In this document: positions 3,839-29,501 of the stretch, one piece after another | How the letters are laid out: every line of letters begins with the position of its first letter | Position numbering within the stretch: the stretch's first letter is position 1 | Position numbers and translations under genes: made by a program | The notes under the pieces: model-generated | What the model saw: the letters and a program-made list of their open reading frames with translations, nothing else | What the model was told of the DNA's origin: nothing | The model's database searches: none | IMG/VR virus record: IMGVR_UViG_3300009551_000002 | Span: 1 to 64,000 of that record | DNA length: 64,000 nucleotides | Source: a virus | Lineage: Duplodnaviria > Heunggongvirae > Uroviricota > Caudoviricetes | Direction: 5' to 3' (one strand)

Positions 3839-4116
3839 TTCACGTGACAGGCGACGACATTGCTGCGCAGTTAAAGCAAGAGCAAGGCTACCTAGTGTAT
3901 GGAGCCTACACTAAGAAGGAAATCGGCGAGATCATTCCTCCGGAGAGGCACGGTGATCACTCGATTCCAGTTCGGATCGTGAAGGTGTCCACCGTAGCCG
4001 CGCTGGTCAAACAGACCAATCGCGTGCATGAAATCGCGCCTGAATTACAGAAGAGAAAAATCCAGTCCTCGGACGTGCGCTGGCCTTTTATTTACGAAGT
4101 AGAAGCGATCGATTAA
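3829..4116 (+). CDS. hypothetical protein
   Basis: 95-aa ORF overlapping the end of the upstream gene; no motif. Confidence 0.3.
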   Translation: MGVIHVTGDDIAAQLKQEQGYLVYGAYTKKEIGEIIPPERHGDHSIPVRIVKVSTVAALVKQTNRVHEIAPELQKRKIQSSDVRWPFIYEVEAID

Positions 4117-4129
4117 AACAGGAGAGACT

Positions 4130-4471
4130 ATGGAAGATAACAACGACAATGACCAGAAAATGAACGAAGTCATTGATGGGCTCAGGAATGGAGCCGAGTC
4201 CGAAGAAGCCGTAGCACAGGTTGCTGCTGCTGCCGCCGATGCGCCTGCACCGCAGGGACTCCCCGCGCCGCGATGCCCATTTTGTCAGGTGGCACTGTTT
4301 GCCGTGGACAAGTCTGGCGTGACCACTTACAACATTCAGATGGGCATGGAGAGGCTCCGGATCTTCACGTGCGCCAATTGCGATTGCGTACTGCCGATCC
4401 AGGTCATGGTGATCGATACGCCGCTAATCGCTGCGCCGAGCGCGCAAGGCGGCAGACTCGTTCGTCAATAG
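4130..4471 (+). CDS. hypothetical Zn-ribbon protein
   Basis: CPFC...CANC cysteine pairs; ends in TAG and is in frame with the downstream ERCC4 gene (9-nt gap). Confidence 0.45.
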   Translation: MEDNNDNDQKMNEVIDGLRNGAESEEAVAQVAAAAADAPAPQGLPAPRCPFCQVALFAVDKSGVTTYNIQMGMERLRIFTCANCDCVLPIQVMVIDTPLIAAPSAQGGRLVRQ

Positions 4472-4480
4472 TCGCTGAGC

Positions 4481-5329
4481 ATGAGCATTACCATCGATCC
4501 ACGCAGAGGGTCGGGAGAATTCGCGCGTCTATTCAGCGGATTCTCCATCCCCATTTACTTAGAAACGCTCGATAGCGCGGACTATGCGTTCAGTGGTAAC
4601 GGGCCGTCTGGTGATGTGTCCGTAGGTGTTGAGCGTAAGGCGCTTGCCGACTTCCTCACGTGCATGAACGACGAGAGGTTTACTGGATTTCAACTAGAGA
4701 AGTTGCTCAAGGATTACCACTACACTTTTGTAGTTATTGAGGGAGTGTACAGACCGACGATCGACGGCTTTATTGAAGTGTGCCAGCCGGTGAGGGATCG
4801 GTTCCGTAATGAGAGCGACAAGGTTATGACATGGCGTCCATTGTATGAGGGCTCGAAGGGGCGACGTACGCTCTACAGTCAACTCGAAGGCCACATCAAT
4901 ACGCTGAGACTCAAGGCAGGCACGCCGAACGCTGGGTTCCTGGTCATGAATACGACGGACGCGTTGCATACGACGTGGGTAGTGGCTAATCTGTACCGGT
5001 GGTTTAGTAAGCCATGGGCTGAACACCAGAGCCACATTGGATTCTACGATCCGGCGTCATTGTTCAGAGGGAAGTCATCGTTCGAGATGAGAGTTGCGAT
5101 GCAGTTGGATAAGGTGGGCGTGGATCGCGCCAACTCGATCGTGAAGGCATTTCCTGGCATGGACGGTATGGTATCGCCACTGGAACAGATGATGACTGCG
5201 ACTGAGAAGGACTGGGAGAGCGTGGATGGCATCGGTCCTACGGGGGCGAAGAACATCTACCGACAGTTACACGGACGGAACGAAGTAAAGGAACCGAAGA
5301 AGATTAGGAAGAAGAAAGGAGATTCGTAA
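4481..5329 (+). CDS. ERCC4-type (XPF/Mus81/Hef-like) nuclease with C-terminal helix-hairpin-helix
   Basis: ERCC4 signature ...SADYAFSG...VGVERKALADFLTC...; C-terminal GIGPTGAKNIYRQL HhH motif. Confidence 0.6.
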   Translation: MSITIDPRRGSGEFARLFSGFSIPIYLETLDSADYAFSGNGPSGDVSVGVERKALADFLTCMNDERFTGFQLEKLLKDYHYTFVVIEGVYRPTIDGFIEVCQPVRDRFRNESDKVMTWRPLYEGSKGRRTLYSQLEGHINTLRLKAGTPNAGFLVMNTTDALHTTWVVANLYRWFSKPWAEHQSHIGFYDPASLFRGKSSFEMRVAMQLDKVGVDRANSIVKAFPGMDGMVSPLEQMMTATEKDWESVDGIGPTGAKNIYRQLHGRNEVKEPKKIRKKKGDS

Positions 5330-6820: not shown

Positions 6821-7086
6821 GTCATCACTGTCACGCAATCGACTGCACCGTCGAAATCCCACCTAGGCTTCATATGTGCCTGAAACATTGGCGGATGGTG
6901 CCGAAGCTCGTGCAGGATCTCATCTGGGCACACTACCGGCCAGGGCAGGAGATCGACAAGAAGCCGACTCCCGAGTATCTGTACACCGCGTTCGTCTCGA
7001 TATCGTGCGTGGCTATGGCAGAAGGCAAGGATCTACCGGTGATGGATATAGCATTGATCAGAATAGTGGAGAATATGAAACCGTGA
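6817..7086 (+). CDS. hypothetical protein with C-x2-C...CLKH motif
   Basis: CHAIDCTVEIPPRLHMCLKHWRM; paralogous motif to ORF 5667. Confidence 0.4.
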   Translation: MSHHCHAIDCTVEIPPRLHMCLKHWRMVPKLVQDLIWAHYRPGQEIDKKPTPEYLYTAFVSISCVAMAEGKDLPVMDIALIRIVENMKP

Positions 7087-7112
7087 GCAACGCCACAATC
7101 ATTCGCCGTAAC

Positions 7113-7313
7113 ATGAGCTACGTGTTCGATAACTTCCGCAATAACGAAGATAACGTGCTCCTACACGGGATCGATATTGAGTTTATCGACGGTGCGTGGT
7201 GTCCGGTCGTCCCACACGGTAACGCGCTCACTGCTCTCGCTGTCGCGCGTCCAGACTGTTTTGAGTTTCGCTGGATAGCGCTCACTAAGAAGTGGCTCCC
7301 GATATATGAATGA
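7113..7313 (+). CDS. hypothetical small protein
   Basis: Internal ATG of track ORF 6876-7313; the upstream part of that ORF overlaps 6817-7086 in another frame. Confidence 0.3.
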   Translation: MSYVFDNFRNNEDNVLLHGIDIEFIDGAWCPVVPHGNALTALAVARPDCFEFRWIALTKKWLPIYE

Positions 7314-8838
7314 TCGCTGCGCTACCTGTACAGGTCGGTTTCATGTCATCCGTGGTGATGGCCCCGAACGATGCCGTGCCGCGATGTTCGGTCAGAATCC
7401 AGGCAAGCAGGAAGAGGCATCGGCAGAGCGCGGCGAGTACGGCAGAGTCTTCATCGGAGACGCGGGCAGGGAACTCAATGAACACTATCTCGCACTGGCC
7501 GGGCTCGTCCGATCTGAAGACGTGTTCGTATCGAATGTGATGAAGTGTCACACGGAGAACGACCGTAAGCCGTCGCCTCGCGAGATCGCCACGTGTGCTG
7601 CTCATCACATGCCTGGAGAGTTAATCGAGCGTGATCCCGACATCGTCGTCCTCATGGGATCGCCCGCGTGCTCGATCGTGCCGGAGATATGGCTAGAGGC
7701 GCATCATGGCTATCCACTGAAGGTGAATCTGTTTGGCACGCAGCGCTGGGTGGTGCCGATGTACCATCCGGCTGCTGGACTACACGACCCGTCGATGATG
7801 ACGGAACTCATGCAGGACTTCGAGCGGCTGAGAAAGATCGTCGGTGGCGACTACTCGGTGCCAATCGATGAGTATCCCAATCCAGAGTATCGCGATCTGA
7901 CCGGCGACCATGCAGCCATCGAAGCGATCCTGCGTAAAGGACTAGACGGCCTGCGGATACTGGCGCGTGATACCGAGTACTTGCAACTGAAGAAGTCGCC
8001 TATCAAGACTCCGTGGTGCTCGACGTTCACTATCGACCCAGGCACCGGGTACATGATTCGAGCTACAGATCGCGCTGGCTTACAGATCCTCGCGCGCTAC
8101 ATGCCGTACTATTACGGCAACTTGCACAATGCGCTGGCTGACCTGGACGTTGAGCAGGTCATGGGGCTGCCGGAAGCTGAGTTCGACGACACCATGCAGC
8201 TTGCCGCGCACCAGCAGGACCTTCCGCAGAAGCTCAAGGCGCTGGCATGGCGGCTCGCTGGGATGACGATGAAGGATTACGAAGACGTCGTCATGCCGTA
8301 TAGTCGGACGGCAGTCCTGGAGTGGTTGGAGGCTGCCTACGACGTTGCTGTGCTGACGCCGACGACCAAGACCAAATACACGAAGAAGAAACGCAAAGTG
8401 CCGAAGACAGAAAAGGCCATGCAGAAATTGTGGGCTGAAATCGGGGCCTTCAATCCGGAAGAAGGACCGGATGGTTACTTCTATTTCAAGATTGCGGAAC
8501 AGGAAGTGTGCGACAGTGATCTCACGAAGAAGATCCTCCACATTCACAAACACACGGCCAAGCCGGTCCCTGCGGATGCGGACAAACCTTACAATTGCTG
8601 GGAGGCTTGGCAGACTCAAGTCGTCGAGAAGCTCGGGCCGGAGATCGAGAACGAAGTCGTGAAGAGGATCGGGCCGATGCCGCAAGCGTCGATCCAGGAA
8701 GTGTTCACACGGAACCCTGAAGAGGCGATACGGTACGCGTGTAGAGACTCGGATTCGACCAGAAGGATCTTCCCTGTGTTGAAGGAGCGGTCGCATAAGT
8801 ATGACGGCAGGGTGATGCTAGGAGATATCGATCGATGA
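7306..8838 (+). CDS. Family A DNA polymerase, N-terminal fragment (UDG family-4-like domain + 3'-5' exonuclease domain + start of polymerase domain)
   Basis: UDG4-like motifs (GQNPG...FIGDAGREL...MKCHT...YHPAAGLH); Exo I (ARDTEY) and Exo III (YYYGNLHNALADLD); C-terminal RYACRDSDSTRRIF matches the PolA YAAxDA region; ends in a stop codon. Confidence 0.7.
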   Translation: MNDRCATCTGRFHVIRGDGPERCRAAMFGQNPGKQEEASAERGEYGRVFIGDAGRELNEHYLALAGLVRSEDVFVSNVMKCHTENDRKPSPREIATCAAHHMPGELIERDPDIVVLMGSPACSIVPEIWLEAHHGYPLKVNLFGTQRWVVPMYHPAAGLHDPSMMTELMQDFERLRKIVGGDYSVPIDEYPNPEYRDLTGDHAAIEAILRKGLDGLRILARDTEYLQLKKSPIKTPWCSTFTIDPGTGYMIRATDRAGLQILARYMPYYYGNLHNALADLDVEQVMGLPEAEFDDTMQLAAHQQDLPQKLKALAWRLAGMTMKDYEDVVMPYSRTAVLEWLEAAYDVAVLTPTTKTKYTKKKRKVPKTEKAMQKLWAEIGAFNPEEGPDGYFYFKIAEQEVCDSDLTKKILHIHKHTAKPVPADADKPYNCWEAWQTQVVEKLGPEIENEVVKRIGPMPQASIQEVFTRNPEEAIRYACRDSDSTRRIFPVLKERSHKYDGRVMLGDIDR

Positions 8839-8858
8839 TCGTGATATAGTCATAAATT

Positions 8859-9344
8859 ATGATGAATCCGGAACATCGAAAGAAAGCGATAGGGCTCACA
8901 CGTAAAACTGCGGACGAGCTAATTCGCAAGATATGCGCGACTGCCGAGAGGATCAATGCGGACAAGAACATGAGCCGTGTCATCGTTAAGCTCACTGTGT
9001 TCGGTAGCTATCTCTCCGATAAAGAAAAGCTAGGCGATTTGGATATTGCCGCCGAGTATGACTTTCGCTATCCTGACGCGAATGGGAATTATTCGGACAA
9101 GCAACGAGCATTGGACGATAAGATCCGAGAGAGCGATCCGCGTGATTACCCGGTGACGATCGTAGCGCGCGTGTGTTACCCGGAATTGCTGGTCTTGAAA
9201 ACACTAAAGGGGGGATCGAGAGCTATCAGTCTACACTCGCAGTCTGAATTAGACGCCATGATAGAGGAATTCCCGGAGACCAAACACAAAGTAATTTGGA
9301 CGCGTAATGAAGTTCCCGAACTCAGAACCGATAGCCCGAAGTGA
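8859..9344 (+). CDS. minimal nucleotidyltransferase (MNT / pol-beta superfamily)
   Basis: GS...D-h-D signature (TVFGSYLSDKEKLGDLDIAAEYDF); 161 aa; first gene of the insertion in the polymerase gene. Confidence 0.5.
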   Translation: MMNPEHRKKAIGLTRKTADELIRKICATAERINADKNMSRVIVKLTVFGSYLSDKEKLGDLDIAAEYDFRYPDANGNYSDKQRALDDKIRESDPRDYPVTIVARVCYPELLVLKTLKGGSRAISLHSQSELDAMIEEFPETKHKVIWTRNEVPELRTDSPK

Positions 9345-10041
9345 CGACGAGATCTCGTCTCATCGTGCGGCATTAAAGCTGACGGCGAGCGGTGCCCGTA
9401 GCTCACAAAAGATGGACCTGTTGTTATGGATGCGCGCACATCACCTATACAGTGCAGAATCGGCGATGACGATGCGAGAGATCGCCGCAGCGCGTGGAAT
9501 GTCGGACTTCTCGTCGATACACAAGCGCTTACCGGATCTACTAGAGGACGGTTATGTTACTAAATGTGGTATCCGTACGTGTCGCGTTACCGGTAATGAC
9601 GCACTCACTTGGGCGATTGGAGACATTGTGCCCGTGATCTCTATTTTCAAAGGCCAGTACTCGTTCCTATCTAACTTCTTCATCGAGCCTGACGGCACGC
9701 ACGTTGAAGGTGAGTACCAAGCACGCAAGGTATTGCCTATCGAACATGGCGTGGAGAATTTGAATCCGTCAAGGGCCAAGGCGTGGGGCAAGAAGATGCG
9801 TGGTAAAGAACGACCGGATTGGCACGAGGTCAATCTGAAGATCATGGAGGATCTGGTGATGGCGAAGTTCGTTGATCACGAGAACCTACGTGAGTTGCTG
9901 CTCGCGACTGGTGACGCAGAGATCGTCGAATCGAATACGTGGCACGATATTTTTTGGGGGCGCTGTGTCTGCCCCCAACATCATGGAGAAGGCCGCAACG
10001 AGCTTGGAATAATCCTTATGAAGGTACGTGCGTGGCTATGA
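9307..10041 (+). CDS. winged-HTH - NADAR (YbiA/DUF1768) domain fusion protein
   Basis: C-terminal NADAR motifs (FKGQYSFLSNFF...EYQARK...NLKIMEDLVMAKF...LLLATGDAEIVESNTWHDIFWG); N-terminal MarR/ArsR-like wHTH; start uncertain. Confidence 0.5.
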   Translation: MKFPNSEPIARSDDEISSHRAALKLTASGARSSQKMDLLLWMRAHHLYSAESAMTMREIAAARGMSDFSSIHKRLPDLLEDGYVTKCGIRTCRVTGNDALTWAIGDIVPVISIFKGQYSFLSNFFIEPDGTHVEGEYQARKVLPIEHGVENLNPSRAKAWGKKMRGKERPDWHEVNLKIMEDLVMAKFVDHENLRELLLATGDAEIVESNTWHDIFWGRCVCPQHHGEGRNELGIILMKVRAWL

Positions 10042-10499
10042 TCGTATACGTCATTAGGAATCAAGTTAACGGGAAAGTGTATGTGGGACAAACCACCCAG
10101 AGCCTAGAATCCAGATGGAGACATCATTGTTGGACGTCGACTCTTGTAGCCGCGAAGATGCCGATCTCCAGAGCGATAGCCAAGTACGGAAAGGAAAACT
10201 TCACTATCGCAGTTATACGAAGATGCCGCTCCCAACGATCTCTGGATTCTTCTGAGTTGAGTTTTGCTAAGAAGCTCCGCGCGTTCGTGCCGCATGGGTA
10301 TAATCTCAGGGCTGGTAACGGTCCTGGAAGTCTCAGCCCAAAAACTAAAGCAAAAATCAGTGCCGCGAATAAAGGGCGCAAACCGACTGCACAGGCAAGG
10401 CACAATATGTCATTGGGCCACTTAGGTCGCAGGAGGTCTCCGATCACGGACATGAAGCTAAGTGAGCGATACAAGGGCAGACCTGTTAGTCGACTCTGA
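10038..10499 (+). CDS. GIY-YIG homing endonuclease (catalytic part; frameshifted)
   Basis: MIVYVIRNQVNGKVYVGQTTQSLESRWRHH = GIY-YIG motif; NUMOD3-like GRKPT repeats; the reading frame continues in +1 after the stop. Confidence 0.6.
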   Translation: MIVYVIRNQVNGKVYVGQTTQSLESRWRHHCWTSTLVAAKMPISRAIAKYGKENFTIAVIRRCRSQRSLDSSELSFAKKLRAFVPHGYNLRAGNGPGSLSPKTKAKISAANKGRKPTAQARHNMSLGHLGRRRSPITDMKLSERYKGRPVSRL

Positions 10500-10500
10500 C

Positions 10501-10688
10501 CAATTGCAGCAGCGAAACGTCTCTCTAAGTTATGGCAAGTCGTATCGCCCTACGGTGAAGCTCACATCATTCGCGGACTAGCCAAGTTTTGTCGAGAGCA
10601 TGGACTTCTCCCCTCACAAATGTGTCTAGTAGCTCAAGGTGCTCGTAATCATCATCACGGCTGGCGCGTAAAGGAAATTCATGCGTAG
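10501..10688 (+). pseudogene. NUMOD1-like DNA-binding tail of the GIY-YIG endonuclease in the +1 frame
   Basis: Translates to ...SPYGEAHIIRGLAKFCREHGLLPSQMCLVAQGARNHHHGWRVKEIHA, typical of homing-endonuclease C-terminal NUMOD1; separated from the catalytic part by a +1 frameshift. Confidence 0.45.
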
Positions 10689-10709
10689 ATCGTTTCGGGG
10701 AGTTCGATA

Positions 10710-11267
10710 ATGGATCAAATCATTGCGTTAATCCGTCAGTTCATCAACATCTTCAAGATCTGGATGATCGTTATGCCATGGGAGCAAGCAGTACGCGTGC
10801 GCCTTGGTAAGCACACAGAGACACTTGAAGCTGGATGTCATCTCAAGTTGCCATTCGTCGATTCCTATTACGTGCAGAGCACACGTAAGCGCAACTCAGT
10901 GACCGGACGTCAGACTATCCTGATGAAGGATGGGATTCGCAACGCAATCGTCGCCACCATCGTGGGATATACGATCAGCGACGTACTCAAACTATACAGT
11001 ACTTTACATCACGCCGAGGACACGATCCGGAATATGGTCATGGCGGAAGTCGTCACTGTCATCTGCGAGCTTGATGATCTGTCCCCTTTGAGCATCGGAG
11101 AACGCGTTACTAAGAATATCAACTTTGAGCAGTACGGTCTGAGCAACGTCGAGGTTTGCGTGGCCGAGCTTTCGATCGCACGCACGTATAGGATCATGGG
11201 CGATTACGCACAGATGTTCCAGAACGGTACGGCGCTGCATACTGAGAGCGAGAATCCGAAGACATGA
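10710..11267 (+). CDS. SPFH/band-7 (prohibitin/stomatin-like) domain protein
   Basis: N-terminal TM helix then an SPFH-like core (PWEQAVRVRLGKHTETLEAGCHLKLPFVDSYY...). Confidence 0.45.
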   Translation: MDQIIALIRQFINIFKIWMIVMPWEQAVRVRLGKHTETLEAGCHLKLPFVDSYYVQSTRKRNSVTGRQTILMKDGIRNAIVATIVGYTISDVLKLYSTLHHAEDTIRNMVMAEVVTVICELDDLSPLSIGERVTKNINFEQYGLSNVEVCVAELSIARTYRIMGDYAQMFQNGTALHTESENPKT

Positions 11268-11503
11268 GGGCCAGTCCATTGCTCGCTAGATATCGTGCGC
11301 TGAAGAAACAGGAAGCGAAGCTCGCTGATAGCTGGGTGAAGTTCCACGCGGCTGCCAAAGCTGGTGGTTGTCAGCACGAGGTCGTAAACGATCATAAGAT
11401 CCATAACGACAACGGCTACGGTCGTTGGTGGACGACGTTCCAGAGGGTATGCGCCTTCTGCGAAGAGGTACTGGAAAGTCGGACTGAAAACGGCTGCTTA
11501 TGA
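11264..11503 (+). CDS. hypothetical protein
   Basis: 79-aa ORF with ATGA overlap. Confidence 0.35.
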   Translation: MRASPLLARYRALKKQEAKLADSWVKFHAAAKAGGCQHEVVNDHKIHNDNGYGRWWTTFQRVCAFCEEVLESRTENGCL

Positions 11504-11673
11504 GTGAAGACGACGCGCGCTACGTGATGAACATTGCCAAGGCGACTCTGTTCGGTGTATATAGTATGCTCTTGCAATTAAATTGTGCAGATAATCGCAT
11601 CGGTGCTTTGACGACCGAGAAGAACAACGCACTGTCGTTGATCGAGAAACAGTTTAACGAGCGCCCGCGATGA
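11500..11673 (+). CDS. hypothetical small protein
   Basis: 57-aa ORF not in the track; overlaps the start of the HNH gene. Confidence 0.25.
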   Translation: MSEDDARYVMNIAKATLFGVYSMLLQLNCADNRIGALTTEKNNALSLIEKQFNERPR

Positions 11674-12287
11674 TGGCTCCTTCCCGCCCGGCCATCTACA
11701 TGCCGGGCCAACCAGACCTGCTCCGTCGAATCAAAGTAGACGGTGTCTTCCTAACAGCCATCGTGATCGCGCGTATATGGTCACGGATAGAAATACGCGG
11801 CGCTGATGAGTGTTGGCCTTGGATAGCCGCAGGGTCACCAGGATATGGGGTGATTAGAGTCGGCAATAAGTTGCTAGTAGTTTCTCGGATCATGGCGCAT
11901 GCAGCTTATGGCAAACCTTCAAAGAAGAAACCATACGCGTGTCATACGTGTGACAACCCCCCATGCTGCAATCCGAAGCATTTGTTCTGGGGGTCGATGA
12001 AAGATAATTTGGACGACGCCAGCGCGAAGGGTAGGTGTGCTGTACAACGTCACCCAGAAATCATTCGCGGAGAACGCAACGGCAGCGCCAAATTAACTGA
12101 AGCACAAGTCGCTGACATATACACGAGCGGTGAGAGTAAGCGGCAAGCCGCTGATCGATTCAGAGTCAGCGTGAGCCTTGTAAAAGCAATCCGGCAAGGA
12201 AAGAATTGGCGACACGTCACAGTTTCACTGCGTCGCGGAAAAGTGGAGTGTCGAAATACATGGCCGTTCCGAAACGCCCACAGATAA
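11670..12287 (+). CDS. HNH homing endonuclease (HNH_3/AP2-like)
   Basis: CWPW...GYGVIRVGNKLLVVSRIMAHAAYG...CHTCDNPPCCNPKHLFWGSMKDN; 3' end overlaps the start of the polymerase C-fragment. Confidence 0.6.
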   Translation: MMAPSRPAIYMPGQPDLLRRIKVDGVFLTAIVIARIWSRIEIRGADECWPWIAAGSPGYGVIRVGNKLLVVSRIMAHAAYGKPSKKKPYACHTCDNPPCCNPKHLFWGSMKDNLDDASAKGRCAVQRHPEIIRGERNGSAKLTEAQVADIYTSGESKRQAADRFRVSVSLVKAIRQGKNWRHVTVSLRRGKVECRNTWPFRNAHR

Positions 12288-13621
12288 CGATGCCCGGCGA
12301 ACCGTGCCTGGAGAACGTCGCGAACATTGATCGTGGCGTCATCCCCTTCACACGCGCCTGCCAGAACAACGGCATGGTGCTCAATCGCGAGCACCTGTGG
12401 GAACTCTCTGAGTACCTCGATAAGGAAATCGCTCGACTAGGTAGAGAGATCACCGAGCATATCCCACAGTCAATGCTCGATGAGTTCACACAAGCATCAT
12501 TAGCGATCGATGATTTGAATCTCGACTCGCCTGATCAGATCGCCGCTCTCTTGTTCCGTCATCTGCGCGTTGGGCAAGGCGTCGAGTTAGAGATGACTCC
12601 TGGTGGAGACCGGATCTCCACAGGAAAGAAACAACTCGAACGGATCAAGAAGGATCACCCGGTCATCCCGCTGATCCTGCAACGGCGCGAATACACCAAA
12701 CTTCAAAACACGTATTGCGACACACTGCCGAACGAAGCCATTTACGTACCGTCGATCGATCGTTGGAAGTTCTACTACAACATCGGGCTGACGTTCACGT
12801 CGACGGGGCGCATGACAGTATCGCGCGTGCATCAGATTCCGATCCGGACAGAGCTAGGCCGCAAGATCCGACAGGCGTTCGAGCCAGAGCCGGGCATGGT
12901 GTTCATCTCCGCTGACTACGCGGGGCTAGAGCTACGCATTCTTGCACACTGCGCGCAAGAGCGGAACATGATCCGGATCTTCCGTGATCCGAAAGGCGAC
13001 ATCCATCAGGAGACAGTCGACGGGCTGAACATGCCGCCAACACTGGACGCTACGGCGCAGCGATTAGCGGCGAAGCGAGTCAACTTCGGCATCGTCTACG
13101 GGACGACGGATCTAGGGCTATGGCTGACGTTGCAATCTGACGGCGTGCCGTGTACGAGGGAACAGTGTGCTGGATTCCAGCTAGGATTCTTCGCCACCTA
13201 TCCTGACGTCGCGCCGTACATTTCAAGGATGCACTATCGCGCCCGGCGCTATGGATTCGCGTACAACATCTTCGGGAGAGTGTCGCCAGCGCCGGAGTTT
13301 CGGTCAGTACATAAGAGGATCGTCAGAGAAGGCGAACGAAGGATTCAGAACTACGTGATCCAGTCGACTGCGACGGACGTGTTCAAGATCGGCGCGGCAG
13401 AGGTCTATGACTTCTGTTTGGAAGTACAGGATGGATTGTTCGGGAAGCCGATGCGCTGCGAGCCGCTGCTGCCGTTTCACGATCAGATCCTACTACAGTG
13501 CGACAAGTCGATCGCGGTCGAGTGCGCTGAAGCGATCGGGCAAATCATGGGCAGTTGCGTACAATTGCGGATACCGTTGAAGGTGGATCATCCGATCCAG
13601 GAGGGTCACTGGAAGAAATGA
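12206..13621 (+). CDS. Family A DNA polymerase, C-terminal fragment (thumb/fingers/palm)
   Basis: Motif A ISADYAGLELRILAH, motif B RLAAKRVNFGIVYG, motif C HDQILLQ; the N-terminus aligns to the segment that follows the YAAxDA region in Klenow; true start may be 12251 or 12290. Confidence 0.75.
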   Translation: MATRHSFTASRKSGVSKYMAVPKRPQITMPGEPCLENVANIDRGVIPFTRACQNNGMVLNREHLWELSEYLDKEIARLGREITEHIPQSMLDEFTQASLAIDDLNLDSPDQIAALLFRHLRVGQGVELEMTPGGDRISTGKKQLERIKKDHPVIPLILQRREYTKLQNTYCDTLPNEAIYVPSIDRWKFYYNIGLTFTSTGRMTVSRVHQIPIRTELGRKIRQAFEPEPGMVFISADYAGLELRILAHCAQERNMIRIFRDPKGDIHQETVDGLNMPPTLDATAQRLAAKRVNFGIVYGTTDLGLWLTLQSDGVPCTREQCAGFQLGFFATYPDVAPYISRMHYRARRYGFAYNIFGRVSPAPEFRSVHKRIVREGERRIQNYVIQSTATDVFKIGAAEVYDFCLEVQDGLFGKPMRCEPLLPFHDQILLQCDKSIAVECAEAIGQIMGSCVQLRIPLKVDHPIQEGHWKK

Positions 13622-13635
13622 TATACTCCTAACTT

Positions 13636-14184
13636 ATGACGTACGAGAAGTACCTCAAAGAGAATTGCAAGTGGTGCGCGAACGGACCTGTCGTTTGGAT
13701 GCGTGTCTACACAGACGACGGCCCATGGCACCTGGACGAACTCGGCGACAAGGTAGAGCGCTGTACGGCGCTACCGCTGAAGGAATGGGCTGCGCAGAAC
13801 GCCGATGCTATACAGCAGGTCGACGACGTCCTCATCGTCAACTTCATCGCCGCCAAGGATAATAACTACAAACAGGCGCTCGCAGATCTCGTGACGCAAG
13901 AGATCCAGATGCACAATGACCCAGTGCTCATGCCGAAGATCACTGGGGTGGCGATGCGACACCGCGAGACCAAAGAAGTGGTATCGATGGCAATGCCAGC
14001 ACGACATCATCTGCTGATCCGCAGGCTGGTAGAAGAGGATGGCAGACCGGACTTCCCCAAGAATTGCCAGCACGGGTTCATTACCGAGAACGGGCAATTC
14101 CTGGACAATTATGAGGCGCGGATATACGCCATGAAAACCAAACAGATCGGCACCCGTGTTCTGACCAGCGAAGATCTCTGGTAA
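13636..14184 (+). CDS. hypothetical protein
   Basis: 182-aa ORF downstream of the polymerase. Confidence 0.5.
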   Translation: MTYEKYLKENCKWCANGPVVWMRVYTDDGPWHLDELGDKVERCTALPLKEWAAQNADAIQQVDDVLIVNFIAAKDNNYKQALADLVTQEIQMHNDPVLMPKITGVAMRHRETKEVVSMAMPARHHLLIRRLVEEDGRPDFPKNCQHGFITENGQFLDNYEARIYAMKTKQIGTRVLTSEDLW

Positions 14185-26032: not shown

Positions 26033-26477
26033 GTATATCTCGAATTCTCCTCCAGTGACGATCACCTTTCCGGCAATCTTTACATTGCCTAGCGAGTCCG
26101 TTCCAACGCGTCGAGTTTTTGTGAAACTTTTTAACAGACCTGAATCGTTTGCAATGACTGCACCACGATTTCCCAGGCGGTAGTGCGGTCCTAGCCCCAG
26201 TTAAATAATGAGGGCGATTACAACGTGCGTGGGAAAAAGCGACGTTCTCCTGATCCCAAAAAAGATCCGCTGATTTATCTTCCCAAGGGCGCTTATGTTC
26301 GACGGTGAACTGCTGGACACTCTCGATCCTAGAGCCACATCTGAAGCAGAGATCCATTTTGGCTGCTACGGCCAGTCTAAATAGAATCGCTTTCCGTAAT
26401 TGATGTAGCGCGGTTCCGTAGGACATTCCAAGTTGCTTTTTGATCTTTGCCGCTCTGTTTCTCCAATCATAGGCCAT
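26019..26477 (-). CDS. HNH homing endonuclease
   Basis: CFRCGSRIESVQQFTVEHKRPWEDKSADLFWDQENVAFSHARCNRPH; inserted in the tRNA array; 3' end overlaps tRNA-Leu(CAA) by 14 nt; start taken at the internal ATG 26477. Confidence 0.55.
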   Translation of the reverse strand: MAYDWRNRAAKIKKQLGMSYGTALHQLRKAILFRLAVAAKMDLCFRCGSRIESVQQFTVEHKRPWEDKSADLFWDQENVAFSHARCNRPHYLTGARTALPPGKSWCSHCKRFRSVKKFHKNSTRWNGLARQCKDCRKGDRHWRRIRDIRARG

Positions 26478-26525
26478 GCTTTTTATAGTAACACTGGTGG
26501 GCACCTTTAGGATGCCCACCAATTC

Positions 26526-26615
26526 TGGTGGGTGCCCTCGGATTTGAACCGAGACTGCCGCAAGGGCAAGAAGTTTTACAGACTCCCGCGCCGTAACCAT
26601 ATCCGACTGTCACCC
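26526..26615 (-). tRNA. tRNA-Tyr(GUA)
   Basis: Class II with long variable arm; anticodon loop CTGTAAA. Confidence 0.6.
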
Positions 26616-26621
26616 GTAATT

Positions 26622-26716
26622 TGGCAGAGGGCCTGGGAGTCGAACCCAGTTGCGCTCGAAGGATCTAACGCGTGTCGCATTAGCAGTGCGATGGCTTACC
26701 GTCCGCCTCGCCCTCT
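26622..26716 (-). tRNA. tRNA-Ser(GCU)
   Basis: Class II; anticodon stem TCGCA/TGCGA, loop CTGCTAA. Confidence 0.65.
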
Positions 26717-26717
26717 G

Positions 26718-26790
26718 TGGCACGAGTGGAAGGAATCGAACCCTCAATCGCAGTTTTGGAGGCTGCTACCGTCACCGTCCGGTCACTCGT
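26718..26790 (-). tRNA. tRNA-Trp(CCA)
   Basis: Anticodon loop CTCCAAA; T-loop TTCGATT. Confidence 0.55.
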
Positions 26791-26799
26791 GTATAAATA

Positions 26800-26887
26800 T
26801 GGCGGAAGGGAGGAGAGTCGAACTCCTATGCGCCGAAGCTGCGGCAGTTTTCGAGACTGCTGGGTTACCATTTACCCATCCCTTCCG
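26800..26887 (-). tRNA. tRNA-Ser(CGA)
   Basis: Class II; anticodon stem GCAGT/ACTGC, loop CTCGAAA. Confidence 0.65.
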
Positions 26888-26901
26888 TGATGTCAAAGAT
26901 C

Positions 26902-26984
26902 TGGTAGCCCCGGAGAGAATTGAACTCTCACGCCCGAAGGCACTGGTTTCTAAGACCAGCGTGTATGCATTCCACCACGGGGCC
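26902..26984 (-). tRNA. tRNA-Leu(UAG)
   Basis: Class II; anticodon stem CTGGT/ACCAG, loop CTTAGAA. Confidence 0.65.
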
Positions 26985-26985
26985 G

Positions 26986-27061
26986 TGGACTGCTCGGTGA
27001 GAATCGAACTCACGATTGGCGGGGTTGCAATCCGCTGCCTTACCGTCTTGGCTACGAGCAG
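26986..27061 (-). tRNA. tRNA-Cys(GCA)
   Basis: Anticodon loop TTGCAAC; discriminator U73 as expected for Cys. Confidence 0.6.
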
Positions 27062-27195
27062 AGAAAATTGTTAGAGAGATGAATATGAACAGAGTCGCAA
27101 ACCGGTACTAGACCAGTAGCGATAGCGCAGGCAGTATAAAGATAGTGCGCGGTTCATGAGATCAGTATACATAAGTGAAGATTGTTTTGCAATAA

Positions 27196-27228
27196 AAAAA
27201 GCCCCGCTCTAAGTGGCGGGGCTTCGTT
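27196..27228. terminator. bidirectional rho-independent terminator
   Basis: AAAAAAA-GCCCCGC-tctaagt-GCGGGGC-TTCGTTTT: GC hairpin flanked by A- and T-runs. Confidence 0.7.
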
Positions 27229-27429
27229 TTACATTGCCTTCTTACCGGGCTTCTGACGCTTCTTCCCAGTCTTGAACCGATTGCGCCCTTTCAGGCGATG
27301 GGCCTTGCCGTCTTTCTCATATCGGCAATGCAGCGTCCGGTTCTTTTCAAAGTTAGCTCTGGGCTCGCCCTGCTGCCGCCGAAGTATATCCAGGCGACGA
27401 CGGCGAGCACCTTTGCTGGCATTGACCAT
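27229..27429 (-). CDS. small highly basic protein (ribosomal-protein-like; bL32-like family tentative)
   Basis: 66 aa, strongly K/R-rich; RBS AAGGAG 6 nt upstream of ATG; followed directly by the terminator; sits at the head of the tRNA array. Confidence 0.4.
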   Translation of the reverse strand: MVNASKGARRRRLDILRRQQGEPRANFEKNRTLHCRYEKDGKAHRLKGRNRFKTGKKRQKPGKKAM

Positions 27430-27502
27430 GACTCGCTCCTTTCTAGGTAGCTGTCATGGTGTACTCCTTATGAATTGGCATAGCCTTACAGGATAGCAGA
27501 AT

Positions 27503-27578
27503 TGGCAGAGGAGGAAGGACTCGAACCTTCGATTGCTGCGTTCAGAGCGCAGTGCAGTTGCCGCTGTGCCACTCCCCT
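27503..27578 (-). tRNA. tRNA-Gln(CUG)
   Basis: Anticodon stem CTGCG/CGCAG, loop CTCTGAA. Confidence 0.6.
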
Positions 27579-27586
27579 ATAAAAAT

Positions 27587-27662
27587 TGGTTGCGGGCAGG
27601 GGAGTCGAACCCCTCCGTCTGCGTCTTCAGCGCAGCACAATCACCACGATTGTTTGCCCGCT
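27587..27662 (-). tRNA. tRNA-Phe(GAA)
   Basis: Anticodon stem CTGCG/CGCAG, loop CTGAAGA; A1-A72 mismatch. Confidence 0.55.
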
Positions 27663-27728
27663 ACATCGAGCCGCCGTCGTCGCTCAGTGTCAGTGGTGCG
27701 ACGATGTCTAGTTGCGACGACTCGAACT

Positions 27729-27805
27729 TGGCGAGGATAGTGGGACTCGAACCCACGATGACCACTTTGAGGGAGTGGTGGCTTAGCCAGCTTGCCCATA
27801 TCCTC
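27729..27805 (-). tRNA. tRNA-Glu(CUC) (C33 in anticodon loop)
   Basis: Anticodon stem CCACT/AGTGG, loop CCCTCAA with C33 rather than U33. Confidence 0.45.
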
Positions 27806-27810
27806 GAACT

Positions 27811-27885
27811 TGGCGCGTCTGATCGGAGTTGAACCGACATCGACCTGAGCGACAGTCAGGTGCTCTGCCATTAAGCTACAGACGC
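27811..27885 (-). tRNA. tRNA-Asp(GUC)
   Basis: Anticodon stem CCTGA/TCAGG, loop CTGTCGC. Confidence 0.65.
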
Positions 27886-27890
27886 GAACT

Positions 27891-27966
27891 TGGTACTCCC
27901 CAGGTGACTCGAACACCCATTCCTGGTTTCGTAGACCAGTGCCTTGTCCAGTTAGACGAAGGGAGC
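27891..27966 (-). tRNA. tRNA-Arg(ACG)
   Basis: Anticodon stem CTGGT/ACCAG, loop CTACGAA. Confidence 0.65.
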
Positions 27967-27967
27967 A

Positions 27968-28041
27968 TGGTAGCGTCGAGGAGAATTGAACTCCTATTTA
28001 CTGAGTGAAAATCAGCCGTCCTGCCGTTAGACGACGACGCC
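27968..28041 (-). tRNA. tRNA-Glu(UUC)
   Basis: Anticodon loop TTTTCAC. Confidence 0.6.
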
Positions 28042-28051
28042 TCAAAAACAT

Positions 28052-28126
28052 TGGTGGGACCGGAGAGAATTGAACTCTCGCCTATCAACTTAAAAGGTTG
28101 CTGCCTCGCCATTCGGCCACGGTCCC
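28052..28126 (-). tRNA. tRNA-Lys(UUU)
   Basis: Anticodon loop CTTTTAA. Confidence 0.55.
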
Positions 28127-28132
28127 TAAACT

Positions 28133-28208
28133 TGGTGGGTCGCGTGAGGATCGAACTCACCGCGTCCTGATTAAGAGTCAGGTCCATCACCATTGATGGT
28201 AGCGACCC
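28133..28208 (-). tRNA. tRNA-Lys(CUU)
   Basis: Anticodon stem CCTGA/TCAGG, loop CTCTTAA. Confidence 0.65.
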
Positions 28209-28215
28209 GAAAACT

Positions 28216-28290
28216 TGGTCCCTCTGCTTGGACTCGAACCAAGACCCTTCGGCTTATGAGGCCGCCGCGCCACCTTTGCGCCACAGAGGA
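28216..28290 (-). tRNA. tRNA-Met(CAU) (elongator Met or Ile2-type; not resolved)
   Basis: Anticodon loop CTCATAA; D-arm GCGC-AAAGGTG-GCGC. Confidence 0.55.
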
Positions 28291-28291
28291 A

Positions 28292-28366
28292 TGGAAGGGA
28301 GACAGGGACTCGAACCCTGGTAAGCAACCTCAAAAGATGCCGTCCTGGCCGCTGAACGATCTCCCT
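28292..28366 (-). tRNA. tRNA-Gln(UUG)
   Basis: Anticodon loop TTTTGAG; A1-U72. Confidence 0.55.
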
Positions 28367-28372
28367 AAGACT

Positions 28373-28448
28373 TGGAACTCCCGGAGCGAGTCGAACGCTC
28401 GTCTACTCTTTAGAAGAGAGTGGCCCTGTTCCGTTGGACGACGGGAGT
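28373..28448 (-). tRNA. tRNA-Arg(UCU)
   Basis: Anticodon stem ACTCT/AGAGT, loop CTTCTAA. Confidence 0.65.
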
Positions 28449-28450
28449 AC

Positions 28451-28524
28451 TGGTCTCTTCGGGACGAGTTGAACGTCCATCGATCGGTTATCAGCCGATT
28501 GCTCTACCGCTGAGCTACGAAGAG
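28451..28524 (-). tRNA. tRNA-Ile(GAU)
   Basis: Anticodon stem ATCGG/CCGAT, loop CTGATAA. Confidence 0.65.
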
Positions 28525-28528
28525 GAAA

Positions 28529-28602
28529 TGGTGCCCCGTGACCGAATCGAACAGTCATTACTGAGATGTAAGCTCAGCGCTCTACCATTGAGCTAACAGG
28601 GC
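28529..28602 (-). tRNA. tRNA-Val(UAC)
   Basis: Anticodon stem CTGAG/CTCAG, loop CTTACAT. Confidence 0.65.
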
Positions 28603-28603
28603 G

Positions 28604-28680
28604 TGGCTCCGGCGATAGGACTCGAACCTATGAATGACCTGATTAACAGTCAGGCGCTTTACCAACTTAGCTACACCGGA
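28604..28680 (-). tRNA. tRNA-Asn(GUU)
   Basis: Anticodon stem CCTGA/TCAGG, loop CTGTTAA. Confidence 0.65.
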
Positions 28681-28690
28681 ACAAAAGAAA

Positions 28691-28767
28691 TGGTCCGGGC
28701 TACTGGATTTCAACCAGTGGTCTCCTGTTCCCAAGACAGGCGGATTAGCAGGCTTTCCTAAGCCCGG
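28691..28767 (-). tRNA. tRNA-Pro(UGG) with unusual T-loop (G56) and D-loop lacking GG
   Basis: Anticodon stem CCTGT/ACAGG, loop CTTGGGA; T-loop TTGAAAT; D-loop AAGCCTGCTAA. Confidence 0.55.
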
Positions 28768-28809
28768 ATATTTACTACAATTACGACATATTCAGTTGTC
28801 AAAGAACTA

Positions 28810-28885
28810 TGGTCGAGCCGCGCAGGATCGAACTGCGATCTCAGCCTTCGGAGGACTGGGTCCTGTCCGTTTGAACGACGGCCCG
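28810..28885 (-). tRNA. tRNA-Arg(CCG)
   Basis: Anticodon stem CAGTC/GGCTG, loop CTCCGAA. Confidence 0.6.
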
Positions 28886-28889
28886 AAAT

Positions 28890-28965
28890 TGGAGTCGGCG
28901 TCGGAACTCGAATCCGAATTTGCAGTTTAGGAAACTGCCGCTCTGTCCAATTGAACTACGCCGAC
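28890..28965 (-). tRNA. tRNA-Arg(CCU)
   Basis: Anticodon stem GCAGT/ACTGC, loop TTCCTAA. Confidence 0.65.
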
Positions 28966-28966
28966 A

Positions 28967-29041
28967 TGGGGTGGCCGGAGGAGCTTGAATCCTCTTTCAC
29001 TGATCCACAGTCAGCGGCTTTACCGTATAAGCTACGGCCAC
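28967..29041 (-). tRNA. tRNA-His(GUG)
   Basis: Anticodon loop CTGTGGA; discriminator C73 typical of His; no encoded G-1. Confidence 0.6.
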
Positions 29042-29044
29042 AGT

Positions 29045-29120
29045 TGGTGGATCTCCGGGGAATCGAACCCCGATTTCTTCGGTGCAAACGAAGCTGCTTC
29101 CCGTTGGCAATGAGAGACCC
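29045..29120 (-). tRNA. tRNA-Ala(UGC)
   Basis: Anticodon stem CTTCG/CGAAG, loop TTTGCAC; G3-U70 alanine identity pair present. Confidence 0.6.
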
Positions 29121-29125
29121 GAAAT

Positions 29126-29187
29126 TGCACCCCACGCTCGGATTCTCACCGATGCACTGTCGACAACGCCTAGGCGCAGACGTGGGG
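29126..29187 (-). other. 62-nt tRNA-like remnant (7-bp acceptor-like stem, lacks one arm) containing two perfect palindromes
   Basis: CCCCACG...CGTGGGG acceptor-like stem ending T-GCA; internal CGCCTAGGCG and TGTCGACA palindromes; T-loop-like TGAGAAT is non-canonical. Confidence 0.25.
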
Positions 29188-29191
29188 AACT

Positions 29192-29266
29192 TGGAGCGAT
29201 CTATCGGACTCGAACCGATGTTGATGCGTTGGCAACGCAACGTCCTGGCCACTAGACGAAGACCGC
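29192..29266 (-). tRNA. tRNA-Gly(GCC)
   Basis: Anticodon loop TTGCCAA; discriminator U73. Confidence 0.55.
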
Positions 29267-29272
29267 GAAAAT

Positions 29273-29346
29273 TGGAGCGAGTAGTGAGAATCGAACTCAC
29301 GTCTGGAGTTTGGAAGACTCCGGCCCTGCCACTGGACGACACCCGC
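29273..29346 (-). tRNA. tRNA-Gly(UCC)
   Basis: Anticodon stem GGAGT/ACTCC, loop CTTCCAA; discriminator U73. Confidence 0.65.
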
Positions 29347-29351
29347 GAAAA

Positions 29352-29426
29352 TGGATCTGGCTCGGAGAATCGAACTCCGGTAGTCGGTTTACGATACCGA
29401 TGCTCTGCCGACTGAGCTAAGCCAGA
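29352..29426 (-). tRNA. tRNA-Thr(CGU)
   Basis: Anticodon stem TCGGT/ACCGA, loop ATCGTAA. Confidence 0.6.
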
Positions 29427-29427
29427 A

Positions 29428-29501
29428 TGGATCTGAGACTGGGACTTGAACCCAGGTCTGCGCCTTACCAAAGCGCCGTTCTGCCGCTGAACTATCCCAG
29501 A
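29428..29501 (-). tRNA. tRNA-Thr(GGU)
   Basis: Anticodon stem GCGCT/GGCGC, loop TTGGTAA. Confidence 0.65.

Follow-up and report, generated by a model that had tools for sequence, protein, structure and literature searches.

The GIY-YIG homing endonuclease gene at positions 10038-10688 of the window (the whole 64,000-nt stretch of phage DNA analyzed here) is interrupted by an in-frame opal codon, and no frameshift is involved. The stop codon is probably the product of a real and very recent G-to-T nonsense mutation, private to this contig, that converted Gly154 (GGA) into TGA. The intact form of the gene encodes a 216-aa free-standing GIY-YIG homing endonuclease in which four linker helices connect an I-TevI-like nuclease domain to a C-terminal module of the I-HmuI type. 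We regard the locus as a disrupted homing endonuclease gene (or one with a base error) of an ordinary, well-known kind, and the span should be annotated as one disrupted gene with an internal stop, not as two genes or as a recoding site.

An initial annotation of this DNA, made from the sequence alone, had described a catalytic GIY-YIG/NUMOD3 part that ends in TGA, followed by a DNA-binding tail in the +1 frame. Re-translation confirmed its coordinates for the gene and the tail peptide that it quoted (...SPYGEAHIIRGLAKFCREHGLL...GWRVKEIHA), which is encoded by the next 186 nt (10500-10685) and followed by a TAG at 10686-10688; the extent and end of the catalytic part were likewise borne out by Pfam and by the ORF, which starts with the ATG at 10038. 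The tail, however, lies in frame 0. When positions 10038-10700 are translated in one frame, the product reads MIVYVIRN...RPVSRL, a stop, PIAAAKRLSKLWQVVSPYGEAHIIRGLAKFCREHGLLPSQMCLVAQGARNHHHGWRVKEIHA and a second stop, so that the catalytic part and the tail share a frame with a single internal stop at codon 154 (10500-10038 = 462 = 154 x 3). Translation of all three frames revealed many stops across the junction in the other two. The region corresponds exactly to the span of the intact 651-nt gene in relatives. At its 5′ end, the start codon shares bases with the TGA that ends the upstream NADAR gene (ATGA), and the tail is without an in-frame start codon of its own. The features discussed here are collected in Table 1.

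Table 1. Coordinates of the endonuclease gene, its neighbors, the private differences of the window and the NADAR-endonuclease pairs (window numbering, except for rows that name another contig)
Feature	Position	Strand	Basis or remark
ORF with family-4 UDG-like domain	7306-8838		Domain match; C-terminal 3′-5′ exonuclease-like region by eye only
NADAR-domain gene, directly upstream	9307-10041	+	NADAR E 1.2e-23
Truncated ORF, 153 aa: GIY-YIG nuclease and three linker helices	10038-10499	+	Pfam, PDB profile, model
In-frame opal codon TGA, codon 154	10497-10499	+	Translation and relatives
Same-frame continuation, 62 codons and TAG: fourth linker helix and DNA-binding module in the intact allele	10500-10688	+	
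Second putative homing endonuclease, HNH/His-Me	11670-12287		Weak Pfam matches
Family-A polymerase-domain ORF	12260-13621		Domain match
Private difference, Pro to Thr	2079		
Private difference, synonymous	2084		
Private difference, synonymous	3478		
Private difference, nonsense	10497		
NADAR-endonuclease pair, window group	9307-10041 and 10038-10688		
NADAR-endonuclease pair, L001	1640-3036		
NADAR-endonuclease pair, L002	4870-6004		
NADAR-endonuclease pair, L046/L099/L100	3189-4385 (L099)		
NADAR-endonuclease pair, L101	3167-4263		
NADAR-endonuclease pair, L102	3001-4048		
NADAR-endonuclease pair, L103	3001-4086		

The nature of the interruption is apparent from its close relatives. Protein searches returned the truncated 153-aa product (P0002), encoded on a 119,411-bp JGI contig, and a full-length 216-aa homologue with 72% identity (P0001). 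The 90% cluster of P0002 contains a second member, P0121, which is 216 aa long and identical to the window product except for Gly154. Using a cluster look-up and an exact-protein look-up, we found P0121 encoded on eight near-identical contigs from eight different assemblies (JGI 3300005338, 3300013296, 3300026023 and 3300006881; ENA ERZ27252281, ERZ27252459 and ERZ27252219; Logan SRR6056499). Their gapless alignments to the window span 2.5-20.7 kb at 99.84-99.98% identity; within the 651-nt gene, every one of them differs from the window at one base, having a G where the window has a T at 10497. The frame is thus continuous in the window, where the TGA interrupts it, and open over all 216 codons in 8/8 of these relatives, each with GGA (Gly) at codon 154. 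The exact look-up of P0002 gave one contig on record and no further place, and the TGA allele was seen in that one contig only. Between positions 38 and 20688 of the window, only four positions differ from every contig that covers the site (Table 1).

A syntenic orthologue at 72% amino acid identity (L001; gene order UDG/exo, NADAR, GIY-YIG, Band_7, PolA) also has a glycine codon, GGG, at position 154. Comparison of the tail between the window and this orthologue yielded an omega of ~0.12; 26 of the 43 differences fall at third codon positions, and the tail has neither indels nor additional stops. This pattern argues that the tail was translated and under purifying selection until very recently. 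In the homologue alignment, the stop column holds Gly in the nearest group and Cys in the second group; it is a variable linker column, occupied by G, C, V, N, A or K. Beyond these relatives, a megablast of positions 9000-14000 against 50,697 phage records gave no match, and scans of IMG/VR and JGI metagenome contigs recovered distant relatives only (≤55% identity in the best segment). As for the phage itself, it is present in at least nine assemblies from JGI, ENA and SRA samples (window 38-20688 against L091-L098, with the identities given above), several of which we take to be rhizosphere or soil metagenomes, and two contigs of ~119 kb are on record (119,411 and 119,375 bp). The phage population is widespread and nearly clonal.

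The domain composition of the protein was examined by profile searches and structure prediction. The truncated ORF matches Pfam GIY-YIG (PF01541; E 6e-10, 39.7 bits against a cut-off of 22.6) and NUMOD3 (PF07460; 21.9 bits against a cut-off of 20.4), and these N-terminal 153 residues also match PHROG homing-endonuclease families. The nuclease domain covers approximately residues 1-95 and has all of the residues that are invariant in 36 homologues (Y4, Y15, G17, R26, H30, E73 and N89). A profile of 17 homologues matches the I-TevI catalytic domain (1MK0, E 8e-8) and, in its positions 142-212, residues 100-170 of I-HmuI (1U3E, E 2.6e-5). An AlphaFold model of the intact allele, with a mean pLDDT of 90.3, predicts four short NUMOD3-like linker helices (101-111, 118-129, 135-145 and 153-162) and a C-terminal beta-beta-alpha-alpha-beta DNA-binding module of the I-HmuI type (165-214). 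In Foldseek comparisons, the first domain superimposes on 1MK0 with a TM of 0.82 and an rmsd of 1.6, and the C-terminal part matches 1U3E with E 2e-4. The tail matches PHROG 2081, an HNH endonuclease family (E 6.7e-10), and has as its best Pfam match the I-HmuI NUMOD-like family PF22083, at 17.3 bits and below the cut-off of 27. It had previously been described as a textbook NUMOD1 tail, a label that we abandon: Pfam NUMOD1 (PF07453) gave no match at E ≤ 1 to either the tail or the fused protein. The kinship of the tail to endonuclease DNA-binding modules is nonetheless real, as documented by PHROG 2081, the 1U3E profile and Foldseek. In the window allele, the TGA separates the nuclease from this C-terminal DNA-binding domain; in the eight sister contigs, the two are parts of one polypeptide. 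A search of positions 7000-14000 with Rfam (E ≤ 1) detected no group I intron and no recoding or SECIS element, and we therefore regard the gene as free-standing.

These observations provide the basis for a simple model. The G-to-T change at 10497 would turn Gly154 into an opal stop in one contig, and translation would then end at 10499, leaving a protein of 153 aa that retains the nuclease domain and the first three linker helices. Such a product would break off just inside the fourth linker helix and would lack the whole C-terminal module. In the intact enzyme, the C-terminal module and the linker are predicted to anchor on an extended site, where the tethered GIY-YIG domain would nick both strands; the truncated enzyme would be unable to find and cut this target, and the allele would represent a freshly inactivated gene whose decay has just begun. 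In I-BmoI, DNA binding by the isolated GIY-YIG domain is weak, and it is the C-terminal domain that contributes most of the binding energy (PMC3664794). If I-BmoI and I-TevI are a guide, the missing domain would account for most of the DNA-binding energy, so the 153-aa product should not cut its target and is probably disabled and unable to home. Excerpts from two accounts of the homing-endonuclease life cycle describe a decay phase, with the defunct T4 I-TevIII as an example (PMC5009752, PMC2790892). Every sampled genome carries the gene and there are no empty sites, a situation in which loss-of-function mutations are to be expected. The previous suggestion of a decaying homing endonuclease is thus retained in modified form, as a single very recent nonsense substitution. 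The locus would capture homing-endonuclease decay at its onset, as a lone nonsense SNP with the gene otherwise unchanged, within a near-clonal soil/rhizosphere phage population.

The main rival to this explanation is a sequencing or assembly artefact, under which position 10497 would really be a G and the gene would be unbroken in the window as well. We assign this a real but minor share of the probability. Although nine assemblies sample this almost clonal population, only this contig has the T; elsewhere in the gene its identity to the intact allele is 100%, and G-to-T is a common artefact that is typical of oxidative damage. However, the contig is long (119,411 bp), which we take as a sign of good coverage, and consensus errors would then be rare. 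Furthermore, the same 20 kb contain three more private differences, which look like real divergence, and other contigs carry private SNPs at similar density. The mix of two synonymous, one missense and one nonsense private difference resembles real strain variation. On balance we favor, with moderate confidence, a biological origin of the change over an error.

Leaky or programmed readthrough of the UGA, for example through near-cognate decoding by a tRNA-Trp(CCA), would allow a little full-length enzyme to be made and would render the allele attenuated rather than dead; we consider this improbable. The TGA is followed by C (CTC TGA CCA), a weak termination context and the leakiest known in E. 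coli, and this C is the sole feature of the site that favors leakiness. Readthrough would also be compatible with the variable linker column at codon 154, where a substituted residue may be tolerated, with the presence of a phage-encoded tRNA-Trp(CCA) (26718-26790; its D-arm is atypical) and with the perfectly intact tail, although a recent mutation explains the intactness of the tail equally well. In contrast, the in-frame stop is missing from 8/8 near-identical contigs and from the 72% orthologue, and is therefore not a conserved, selected feature. The RNA around the junction (10470-10570) is predicted to be no more stable than shuffled sequence (z-score +0.31), and neither this fold nor the Rfam search of 7000-14000 revealed a SECIS element or readthrough hairpin. 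None of the 33 tRNAs predicted by ARAGORN has a UCA anticodon, so that no suppressor tRNA for UGA was found. Finally, same-frame open stretches that flank a stop are no commoner for TGA than for TAA (10 versus 11). A more specific version, in which UGA-C near-cognate decoding makes the opal allele an attenuated endonuclease with a trickle of full-length enzyme, seems to us slightly more improbable still; if true, it would lower nuclease toxicity at a stage when the gene is already present in all genomes of the population.

A reassigned code throughout the genome, in which TGA would mean Gly (code 25) or Trp (code 4), is very improbable. In its favor, the closest homologues have Gly opposite the TGA, and Gly is the meaning of the codon in code 25. 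Against this, standard-code ORFs tile the window at ~90% density, and TGA is the commonest stop, ending 71 of the 134 greedy-called ORFs, many of them in ATGA overlaps; the NADAR gene directly upstream is itself among the genes that stop on TGA. A tRNA with a UCA anticodon is lacking among those predicted, the near-identical genomes have GGA at this codon, and the same-frame census revealed no conserved in-frame TGAs in core genes. The GC content of the window (54%) is also unlike that of known code 25 lineages. At this GC content, the lengthening of ORFs on reading TGA as a sense codon is uninformative. Global recoding of TGA or of TAG was rejected, since ORF tiling, stop usage and the census of same-frame ORF pairs were all ordinary.

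A +1 frameshift joining the nuclease part to the tail, either programmed or caused by a sequencing indel, can be dismissed, as the proposal rests on a miscounted frame and no point supports it: the tail reads in frame 0, stops crowd the +1 and +2 frames across the junction, programmed frameshifting is excluded because the frame never changes, an indel is excluded by the gapless alignment to eight intact copies that differ by one substitution, and the junction (GTT AGT CGA CTC TGA CCA ATT) contains no slippery heptamer of the X XXY YYZ type and no homopolymer run. Relatives share no shift-prone site either, their codon 154 being open (GGA or GGG). A connection of frameshifting to the unusual tRNAs of this phage had also been proposed and is not supported, given that the ARAGORN anticodons of these tRNAs (ATTA, AATA and CTA) are unable to read UGA; the four-base anticodons ATTA and AATA would, as we read them, pair with UAAU and UAUU, both of which are absent from the junction. 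A false lead is thereby removed, as the locus involves no frameshift, no recoding and no tie to the unusual tRNAs.

The preferred reading, a nonsense mutation in a formerly intact endonuclease gene, can be set against several known enzymes. I-TevI, from phage T4, and I-BmoI, from Bacillus mojavensis, resemble the window gene in their N-terminal GIY-YIG nuclease domain, for which the 1MK0 comparisons above are the evidence, and in a flexible linker that carries helices of the NUMOD3 type. These enzymes are anchored by a DNA-binding module at the C-terminus (PMC3664794), as is predicted here. Unlike intron-encoded I-TevI and I-BmoI, however, the window gene is free-standing, with an ATG that overlaps the upstream stop, its linker is made up of four helical repeats, and the window allele is truncated at codon 154. 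The C-terminal module is I-HmuI-like, whereas I-TevI has a zinc finger and a helix-turn-helix, and identity to I-TevI is ~23-24% and confined to the catalytic domain. The part of I-HmuI (Bacillus phage SPO1) that is matched by approximately residues 142-212, including the untranslated tail, comprises its C-terminal NUMOD3 helix and its helix-turn-helix DNA-binding part; scored by itself, the window tail falls below the curated cut-off of the I-HmuI-type family, as given above. The catalytic domains of the two enzymes differ, that of I-HmuI being HNH and that of the window gene GIY-YIG.

A parallel for the lesion is T4 I-TevIII, an endonuclease gene that is disabled in one strain and intact in a close relative (RB3). 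I-TevIII is intron-encoded and of the HNH type, and its T4 copy is a deletion derivative, whereas the lesion in the window is a single nonsense substitution in a gene that otherwise retains 100% identity to a functional allele. Excerpts from published descriptions report I-TevIII as truncated in T4 and intact in RB3 and assign this state to the decay phase of the homing cycle (PMC2790892, PMC1865063, PMC5009752). In its location, the window gene is like the free-standing Seg and Mob enzymes of T4, being inserted between genes and abutting a conserved gene, here NADAR. The adjacency to NADAR persists in unrelated genomes, whichever the orientation, and NADAR is a candidate target only.

This adjacency has more value for follow-up than the stop codon itself. 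In seven independent contexts (Table 1), a homologue from the endonuclease clade (45-72% identity) lies directly against the 3′ end of a NADAR gene, with L104 as the one exception. In four of the contexts, the endonuclease is co-directional with NADAR, and in three it is encoded on the other strand, so that the two genes converge at the NADAR stop. The conserved adjacency suggests that the homing target is at the NADAR 3′ end. The NADAR genes concerned end 10-20 codons past a conserved WG...G.N.LG..LM..R motif, which is a plausible target of the free-standing endonuclease. We know of no described link between NADAR and such endonucleases. Based on this association, we speculate that the endonuclease clade may spread a candidate counter-defence gene, since NADAR could act in the removal of ADP-ribosylation from DNA, between unrelated phages. 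The apparently split DNA polymerase that surrounds the locus was set aside as a homing target, because homologues elsewhere travel with NADAR and not with PolA.

The endonuclease gene sits in a 3.4-kb stretch between the UDG-like ORF and the family-A polymerase-domain ORF, which appear to be the two halves of a split family-A DNA polymerase. Seven ORFs lie between the halves, including NADAR, Band_7, small ORFs and two homing endonuclease genes, the second of which is the putative HNH/His-Me enzyme in Table 1. The same split is found in L001, where only three genes (NADAR, GIY-YIG and Band_7) lie between the halves.

Several observations concern the tRNA genes of the phage. The two tRNA-like genes at 19428-19505 (+) and 24880-24953 (-) score above the Rfam tRNA threshold (56.8 and 49.2 bits) and have abnormal anticodon loops, one with the 8-nt loop CAUUACAU and the other with GAAUAA or an expanded loop. 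ARAGORN gives their anticodons as 'atta' and 'aata'; they cannot decode UGA and are unrelated to the endonuclease stop. The tRNA at 25021-25096 (-) has the anticodon CUA of an amber suppressor and is labeled tRNA-Pyl by ARAGORN; its anticodon loop is a normal 7-nt loop (CUCUAAC), and its Rfam tRNA score is the best of the array (68.4 bits). Despite this CUA tRNA, TAG is still the stop of ~24 of the 134 greedy-called ORFs. At 4103-5329 (+), the genes 4130-4471 and 4481-5329 share a frame and are separated by the TAG at 4469-4471 and three codons; given the amber-suppressor tRNA, they are a candidate TAG readthrough fusion, or else a coincidence, for which the chance is 1 in 3. The dense array of ~31 tRNA genes at 24880-29501 (-) covers most amino acids and is unusually complete for a phage genome of ~119 kb.
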